DNA of 24,982 bases, taken from a virus. Taxonomy: Duplodnaviria > Heunggongvirae > Uroviricota > Caudoviricetes. The stretch is from the IMG/VR virus record IMGVR_UViG_2551306526_000003, one strand, 5' to 3'. Of this stretch, positions 7,297-7,643 are shown in pieces. Position 1 is the stretch's first letter. Each line of letters starts with the position of its first letter. The notes under the pieces are model-generated. The model was not told where the DNA came from. It did not search any database and worked only from the letters and a program-made list of their open reading frames with translations. A program made the position numbers and the translations under genes.

Positions 7297-7643
7297 ACCT
7301 GGTCTCTCTCATCTGCTTCTGCTTTCGCCACCATCATTTCCAGCTTTTGTGAAAGGGATGCGGCTAACGTGTGAAATTCTTCGTCTGTTTCTACTGGTAT
7401 TGGCACAAACCTGACTCCAATTTGAGCGAGGCTATGTGCCATCTCGATACTCGTTCTTAACTCAACGGGAGATGCTTTGTGCATACAGCCCCCCCCCACT
7501 TTATTATTTATCTCCTCAGCCAGCCGCTGTGCTTTCAGGGGATTTCGGATTACAGAAAGGCCGGGAAATACCCAGCCTCGCTTTGTAACGGAGTAGACGA
7601 AAGTGATTGCGCCTACCCGGATATTATCGTGAGGATGCGTCAT
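7293..7643 (-). CDS. 116-aa early-left protein equivalent to lambda orf60a plus orf63 read as one frame; contains a G9 homopolymer (C9 on plus, 7489-7497)
   Basis: ATGA overlap with exo stop (start 7643), as for lambda orf60a; span 351 bp vs 347 bp for the two overlapping lambda ORFs as I recall the annotation. Confidence 0.5.

Follow-up and report, generated by a model that had tools for sequence, protein, structure and literature searches.

The DNA analyzed here, a stretch of 24,982 nucleotides that we refer to as the window, represents a lambdoid prophage remnant that E. coli chi7122 carries at ybhC/att-lambda. Alignment to phage lambda accounts for att, int and xis (lambda 27724-29420), for a segment that stretches from the end of ea22 across exo and into 3′ bet sequence (30354-32221), and for kil, cIII, ea10 and ral (33180-34401). 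Lambda 32222-33179, which comprises most of bet and gam, is absent, and a G6 run (AAGGGGGGTAG) is found at the corresponding junction (8512/8513). From position 9733 on, the homology to lambda ends (at lambda 34401) and sieB, N, nutL, pL, rex and cI are all absent; beyond this point lie a fragment of a Q-type antiterminator, an ompC-like porin gene (10135-11217) and a DLP12-like lysis cassette, and in the annotation of related prophages a truncated terminase abuts a tail-tip fragment. Terminator-like hairpins are present on the minus strand at 9284, 8844 and 6980, and sites of this kind remain upstream of exo. A sigma-70-like site on the minus strand (9812-9783; GTGACA and TATAAT separated by 18 nt, with 11 of 12 consensus matches) lies just upstream of ral within the region of the Q fragment, and might in theory serve as a promoter for the orphaned leftward operon. 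Elsewhere in the remnant, the window shares with APEC O78 and, judging from feature coordinates, with DSM 103263 a 9-bp TTATCGTTT between ybcV and ybcW (14045-14053); this stretch is missing from MS20649 and OW848980, and the locus is shortened to the same length in E19057 and VTB97022v.

Within this remnant, orf60a is located directly downstream of exo (lambda exonuclease; 7640..8320, minus strand, from the ORF list and the APEC O78 annotation) and is translationally coupled to it, with the ATG at 7643-7641 overlapping the exo stop codon at 7642-7640 as ATGA. A single minus-strand ORF of 116 aa extends from this ATG (7293..7643; annotated as CCK45936.1 in the E. coli chi7122 record HE962388.1), or of 118 aa when an ATG two codons upstream is used. 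Pfam identifies two domains in the product, DUF1317 (PF07026) at residues 1-55 (113 bits against a cut-off of 22.3, model positions 1-55 of 60) and DUF1382 (PF07131) at residues 54-113 (105.5 bits against a cut-off of 27). By alignment and Pfam, the orf60a portion comprises codons 1-48 with the DUF1317 core (7500..7643, minus strand). The remainder contains orf63 (63 aa and a stop codon; 7293..7484, minus strand), whose homologues are annotated as DUF1382 proteins in all relatives, and residues 54-116 match the chain of lambda Orf63 solved by NMR (8dsb_A, E = 2.8e-32). A first-pass annotation of the window had described this ORF as lambda orf60a and orf63 brought into one frame, a description that both Pfam and the alignment support. 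An AlphaFold2 model of the fused protein (53-sequence alignment; mean pLDDT 47, pTM 0.30) was uninformative, since the alignment had little depth and Orf63 forms obligate dimers.

The two domains are joined across a homopolymer. Direct reading places a C9 on the plus strand at exactly 7489-7497, the coding (minus) strand reading G9, inside the 116-aa ORF; position and translation are both as the first-pass annotation had given them. The plus strand at this site reads CATACAG CCCCCCCCC AC TTTATT and the coding strand AAA-G-T-GGGGGGGGG-CTGT-ATG, where the final ATG (7484-7482), 4 nt after the run, is the start codon of orf63 itself. No other homopolymer of 9 or more nucleotides occurs in the 24,982-base window, and base composition alone predicts about 0.07 C or G runs of at least this length per window. 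When aligned with lambda and four relatives, the sequence is conserved throughout except for the stretch between AATAATAAA and CTGTATG. Comparison of the aligned sequences identifies the G9 as an expanded, uninterrupted form of the G-rich element, CGAGGGG or CGGGGAG, found in lambda-type phages.

Frame states at the orf60a/orf63 junction

In the lambda reference (NC_001416), orf60a (31169..31351; 60 aa, DUF1317) and orf63 (31005..31196; 63 aa, DUF1382) overlap by 28 nt and lie in different frames. The first-pass annotation had placed two overlapping lambda frames at these coordinates and had proposed an alignment to lambda as a check; this placement is accurate, and the alignment shows that lambda carries two ORFs rather than a single one. 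Window DNA is 96.7% identical to lambda 30962-31408, and the two share the placement after exo, the ATGA coupling, both Pfam domains, the orf63 ATG and a G-rich putative Shine-Dalgarno sequence. They differ in the variable stretch, which in lambda is an interrupted CGAGGGG of 7 nt, probably also the orf63 Shine-Dalgarno sequence, with split genes, whereas in the window it is G-T-G9 (11 nt) with one fused ORF. A separate Orf60a of about 60 aa ending some 25-28 nt past the orf63 start is not found in the window, where the product has 116 aa, but it is found in six of eight clonal relatives, with a length of 61 aa. APEC O78, for example, has a split orf60a annotated at 7458-7643 of its own locus coordinates. 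In the lambda frame used by these relatives, the C-terminal tail of Orf60a is encoded by 7457..7488 (minus strand), according to the APEC O78 annotation and simulated translations; in the window these nucleotides are read in the orf63 frame rather than in that of the Orf60a tail. The T-G9 stretch (10 nt) that is normal for the window's lineage differs from lambda by one additional Gly and an Arg to Trp change in Orf60a.

To define the consequences of length change, run lengths were simulated on the window backbone. Stretches of 7, 10 or 13 nt yield the lambda frame and an Orf60a with the lambda-type tail; stretches of 8 or 11 nt yield an Orf60a-G(n)-C-Orf63 fusion of 115-116 aa; and stretches of 9 or 12 nt yield a third frame in which the Orf60a tail reads GLYAQSISR. 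The two unfused frames differ only in the last 10-12 residues of Orf60a, which lie at or past the end of the DUF1317 model and outside most of it. All three frames are common in nature. The split arrangement is represented by lambda itself (CGAGGGG, 7 nt) and by ACN002 (T-G9, 10 nt), the third frame by phage 2G7b (C-G8, 9 nt), and the fused frame by QDFD216 (T-G7, 8 nt) and GPEC1054 (T-G10, 11 nt), both of which carry a PGAP flag of 'frameshifted', as well as by the window (G-T-G9, 11 nt). The interrupted forms CGGGGAG and CGAGGGG and the uninterrupted CGGGGGG are synonymous in Orf60a, all encoding Arg-Gly-Ala.

In every variant, the run is predicted to pair with the 16S anti-Shine-Dalgarno sequence at -7 to -11 kcal/mol (-11.0 kcal/mol in the window), at a distance of 3-6 nt before the orf63 ATG. 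Because this pairing is predicted in every variant, the G-rich element is most likely the ribosome-binding site of orf63, and orf63 is intact in every tract state. These results revise the picture of a simple toggle. The first-pass annotation had proposed that a change of one nucleotide in the tract switches between one 116-aa protein and two overlapping ORFs of about 60 aa. The reading frame does change as proposed, but simulated lengths and contig counts both give three states instead of two; and the outcome is not simply a choice between one protein and two, because orf63 retains its own ATG throughout and the run probably constitutes its Shine-Dalgarno sequence.

A separate feature of the locus concerns the interior of orf60a. 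The lambda record has a misc_recomb feature at 31266/31267, within orf60a; many homologues carry unrelated sequence 5′ of the conserved orf60a core; and in strain 1409 the orf60a N-terminus abuts a P/ren remnant (3423-3570 of its locus). These sequence comparisons point to a candidate recurrent recombination breakpoint inside the gene.

Variation of the tract across E. coli

The distribution of tract forms was surveyed in 120 IMG/VR loci, chosen regardless of tract length, together with five reference loci. The tract was interrupted or a G6 in 117 of these 125 loci (CGGGGAG in 66, CGAGGGG in 38, CGGGGGG in 10 and CGAGGGA in 3). Tracts of at least 8 nt were collected from 14 viral and three metagenome loci; they ranged from C-G7 to C-G9 and from T-G7 to T-G9 and occupied all three frames. 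Loci were then grouped by nucleotide-identical flanks of ±150 nt, the largest group having been partly picked for its similarity to the window, and in this grouping none of the 20 groups (75 loci) whose tract was interrupted or a G6 showed any variation, while the groups with long runs contained six states among 17 loci, two states among three loci and one state in two loci. A single protein backbone bears seven tract states. Thus, hypervariability is confined to long forms of the tract.

A broader census was based on exact-sequence matches of the products predicted on the window's backbone, counted in contigs. In the T-series, 7 contigs carried G6, 216 G7, 100 G8, 916 G9, 63 G10, 7 G11 and none G12. 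The C-series comprised 8 contigs with G7, 348 with G8, 127 with G9, 9 with G10, 2 with G11 and 2 with G12; C-series G6 was counted together with the interrupted forms, at 1000 contigs or more. In public E. coli data the uninterrupted run therefore spans G6 to G12 and all three frames. Fused alleles of 115-116 aa account for about 300 contigs (T-G7 on 216, T-G10 on 63, C-G7 on 8 and C-G10 on 9), and fused alleles on closely related backbones for a further 183, 68, 57 and 27. Among 5,426 complete genomes, the T-series was represented by T-G7 in 20, T-G8 in 1, T-G9 in 19 and T-G10 in 1, as confirmed by top-ranked matches with 100% identity and full coverage. Corresponding C-series counts derived from identity bands were dropped, the band totals being mutually inconsistent. 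A local simulation of C-series matching gave full-length alignments, but the band at or above 99% identity is probably contaminated by alignments that are perfect yet cover only some 35-37 nt.

The common alleles T-G7, C-G8 and T-G9 cannot be sequencing errors, because each recurs across hundreds of contigs, in some cases together with linked SNPs in the flanks. The rarer satellites that differ by a single nucleotide may in part be homopolymer errors, especially in genomes assembled from long reads only, and to that extent the apparent polymorphism would be inflated. In E. coli, indel rates climb exponentially with run length, and G:C runs of 8 bp are already outliers (PMC8510543); given this dependence on homopolymer length, replication slippage would be the natural mechanism for the variation seen here. 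The first-pass annotation had considered the tract a potentially length-variable site, and it is indeed polymorphic among closely related strains, in the clone to which the window belongs as well as in the identical-flank groups and the census. We conclude that the tract, which lies at a known gene junction, truly is a hypervariable homopolymer, and that its polymorphism is probably largely neutral. The alleles T-G9 and C-G9, which are in frame with the lambda type (+3), rank first or second in frequency within their series, an abundance that may stem from selection favoring the lambda frame or simply from the sampling of clones.

We also considered whether long runs are restricted to a decayed lineage. 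This idea was rejected, as C-G8 and C-G9 loci with intact bet and gam were found. C-G8 is present in the sequenced phages 2G7b and PhiR11_1, and the T-G7 fused allele occurs in the prophage of NS-NP030, whose annotation shows intact gam, bet, kil, cIII, ral and sieB. A hypervariable G run is a feature of a substantial minority of E. coli lambdoid prophages, with at least about 1,800 contigs carrying G7 or longer on one backbone.

Origin of the fused frame in the window

The fused frame of the window is not explained by the length of its run. The first-pass annotation had linked the frame state to a change of one nucleotide in the tract; however, the run itself is a G9, as in six of eight clonal relatives (T-G9; OW848980 has T-G8 and GPEC1054 has T-G10), and the frame is shifted by an extra base at 7499, a C on the plus strand that reads as a coding-strand G before the T. 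This base, which gives the G-T-G9 spelling AAAGTGGGGGGGGGC, is absent from all eight relatives, APEC O78 and seven others. Since it sits beyond the flanking T, the fusion did not arise by slippage of the run. An exact-sequence look-up across about 15 billion proteins returned the 116-aa product from one contig only, HE962388.1 (chi7122) itself, and no product of a 'GT' allele with another run length (G5-G8 or G10) was found in the same set. Derivation from a G10 with swapped bases was discarded, as it requires two substitutions from T-G10 versus one insertion from the T-G9 of the clone.

Comparison of the whole window with APEC O78 (NC_020163) revealed five differences in 24,982 nucleotides, namely two SNPs and three 1-nt indels, the latter consisting of a change in an IS2 at 3224, the extra C at 7499 and an A6 in place of A5 at 19401. 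All three indels and one of the SNPs are private to the window (six relatives were compared at the IS2 and tail-fibre sites and eight at the tract). At 3224, within the IS2 (about 3120-4392), the window reads GCATTG where six of six clonal relatives read GCAATTG; the missing A shortens the IS2 orfA from 136 to 92 aa, the ORF being intact in the relatives, and is probably another assembly error. At 19396-19401 the window has A6 and all six clonal relatives A5, and the additional base splits a tail-fibre ORF of 1101 aa into 18468..19409 (313 aa) and 18871..21780 (969 aa). Two of the three private indels thus lie in or beside homopolymers, and all three change a reading frame. APEC O78 was sequenced by 454 with 539x Illumina correction and Sanger checks, and the chi7122 genome was released as 12 contigs (PMC3622999). 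DSM 103263, the closest relative, shares the window's A at 21153 and has a second IS2 (21960-23188 of its own locus) after the tail-fibre assembly fragment, a copy that the window does not have.

Because the private differences are rich in indels, two of the three being in or beside homopolymers and all three shifting a frame, we regard the extra base as most likely to be an assembly or base-calling error. A homopolymer error had been offered as an alternative in the first-pass annotation, and from the private indels it emerges as the most likely cause of the window's state. In flow-based chemistries, a spurious copy of the homopolymer base placed one position past the run is a familiar failure. 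The chi7122 assembly is presumably a 454-era product of the Sanger Institute, although we did not use this as evidence. Early next-generation indel errors at homopolymers resemble the present case in several respects: a singleton base shifts the frame, it is separated by 1 nt from a 9-nt homopolymer, it repeats the base of the run, and it is accompanied by two more private indels in 25 kb. Unlike such errors, the run length in the window matches that of most clonal relatives. It is much less likely that the extra base is a real insertion private to chi7122, giving a fused gene that is probably silent or neutral in a remnant that lacks pL and N. The fused frame is evidently viable in nature, given T-G7, T-G10, C-G7 and C-G10 on 216, 63, 8 and 9 contigs and its occurrence in NS-NP030 with an intact early-left operon, and a decaying prophage that has lost pL, N, the immunity region and most of bet and gam would tolerate random indels. 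However, a single-base insertion outside the run, with a T between, is not slippage and belongs to a rare class of mutation; the other two private 1-nt indels also break ORFs, versus only one private SNP in 25 kb; an indel-heavy spectrum of this sort is typical of assembly error and not of mutation; and the G-T-G9 spelling is unique among the 15 billion proteins. If the extra base is an artefact, the true state of chi7122 would be T-G9 with two overlapping genes, as in lambda.

Taken together, we favor with moderate confidence an explanation that combines an expanded, slipping run at the orf60a/orf63 junction with an artefactual extra base in the window. In lambda-type phages a CGAGGGG, CGGGGAG or CGGGGGG element, 4 nt before the orf63 ATG, would act as the Shine-Dalgarno sequence of orf63, and Orf60a would terminate 28 nt past the element in the other frame. 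In a minority of alleles this element would have grown into an uninterrupted G run, which would gain or lose single G's through replication slippage. Slippage would then give rise to three frames, encoding a lambda-type tail, an alternative tail of 10-12 residues or an Orf60a-(Gly)n-Orf63 fusion, and in all three the start codon and ribosome-binding site of orf63 would be kept. For the window itself the import is small, the fused gene being probably an error in a 2012-era assembly of a promoterless prophage remnant. Likewise, the frame state is unlikely to matter in chi7122, because the operon has lost its native promoter and antiterminator.

Possible roles of the run and consequences for annotation

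Slipped-strand phase variation at poly-G/C runs is known in Neisseria, Haemophilus and Campylobacter, and the run described here shares several properties with those contingency loci: it is an uninterrupted G7-12 in coding sequence, it varies among strains and it alters the frame. Both an uninterrupted, slippable repeat that changes the product (a G9 in coding sequence, with three products) and length polymorphism in near-identical strains were found, the latter with the caveat that some singletons may be sequencing errors. We judge it improbable that the run is an unrecognized phage contingency locus, a selected, heritable and reversible switch between Orf60a tail isoforms and the fusion that would act through these pro-lytic genes on the lysis-lysogeny decision or on induction; a similarly low likelihood applies to the related idea that slippage shifts the ribosome-binding spacing of orf63 and possibly tunes its translation. 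Long runs do persist on well over a thousand contigs in all three frames, they vary within one clone (T-G8, T-G9 and T-G10), and they are found in the sequenced phages with C-G8 and in prophages with intact bet and gam. Furthermore, deletion of orf60a or orf63 measurably alters lysogenization and induction (PMC6213356, PMC5575149, PMC8614690), and a functional fusion is plausible because Orf63 lacks structure in its first 11 residues and still folds, as a dimer, when a 14-residue tag is attached to its N-terminus (PMC10869804). Yet most lambdoid phages, lambda and the Stx phages included, have an interrupted, non-slippery and monomorphic tract, so that the run, unlike the established contingency loci, is missing in most members of the family, and E. 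coli is proficient in mismatch repair. There is also no ON/OFF outcome: only the last 10-12 residues of Orf60a, mostly outside the DUF1317 model, change between the unfused frames, or Orf60a is fused, and orf63 is intact with its own start in every state, such that nothing is switched off. The exo-xis papers that we consulted do not mention the tract, its frame variants or the fusions, and the allele counts are confounded by clonal sampling. Were the run a contingency locus nonetheless, clonal lysogens would hold heritable subpopulations that differ in their propensity for lysis, lysogeny or induction.

A role as a recoding site, at which slippage by RNA polymerase or the ribosome would give a mixture of split and fused products from any genotype, appears more remote still. 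Low-level compensatory frameshifting is documented for the G7 tract of the herpesvirus thymidine kinase gene (PMC5009743), and G GGG GGG formally fits the X XXY YYZ slippery pattern. The herpes simplex thymidine kinase G7/G8 tract is comparable in that an indel in a G run changes how a viral gene is read, while slippage at a low level could bring back the alternative product (PMC5009743); the present tract differs in that its site is not conserved among homologues. Most homologues have an interrupted tract, and where the run is uninterrupted its length varies freely from G7 to G12. A programmed recoding site, for which conservation and a constant length would be expected, is therefore disfavored. 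We found no report of efficient transcriptional slippage on G/C runs in E. coli; the bacterial survey that we consulted covers A and T runs (PMC1088944).

The natural variants may be of use in their own right. The three frame states provide a means of probing the Orf60a tail and the stoichiometry of Orf60a and Orf63, and they are useful test variants because both genes sway the lysis-lysogeny decision in lambda and in Stx phages. In addition, Orf63 has been described as occurring as a domain of no other protein (PMC10869804), a statement that is qualified by natural Orf60a-Orf63 fusions on hundreds of contigs. At this locus, 'frameshifted' flags in the style of PGAP and entries such as a 116-aa 'unnamed protein' call for caution, and annotation and pangenome pipelines will break it into many spurious gene families. 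Annotation outside the lambda frame is already inconsistent: RefSeq PGAP calls orf60a a 'frameshifted' pseudogene, many draft genomes contain fusion proteins of 115-117 aa labelled 'DUF1382 family protein', and in phage 2G7b orf63 is annotated as 37 aa only (644-757 of its locus).
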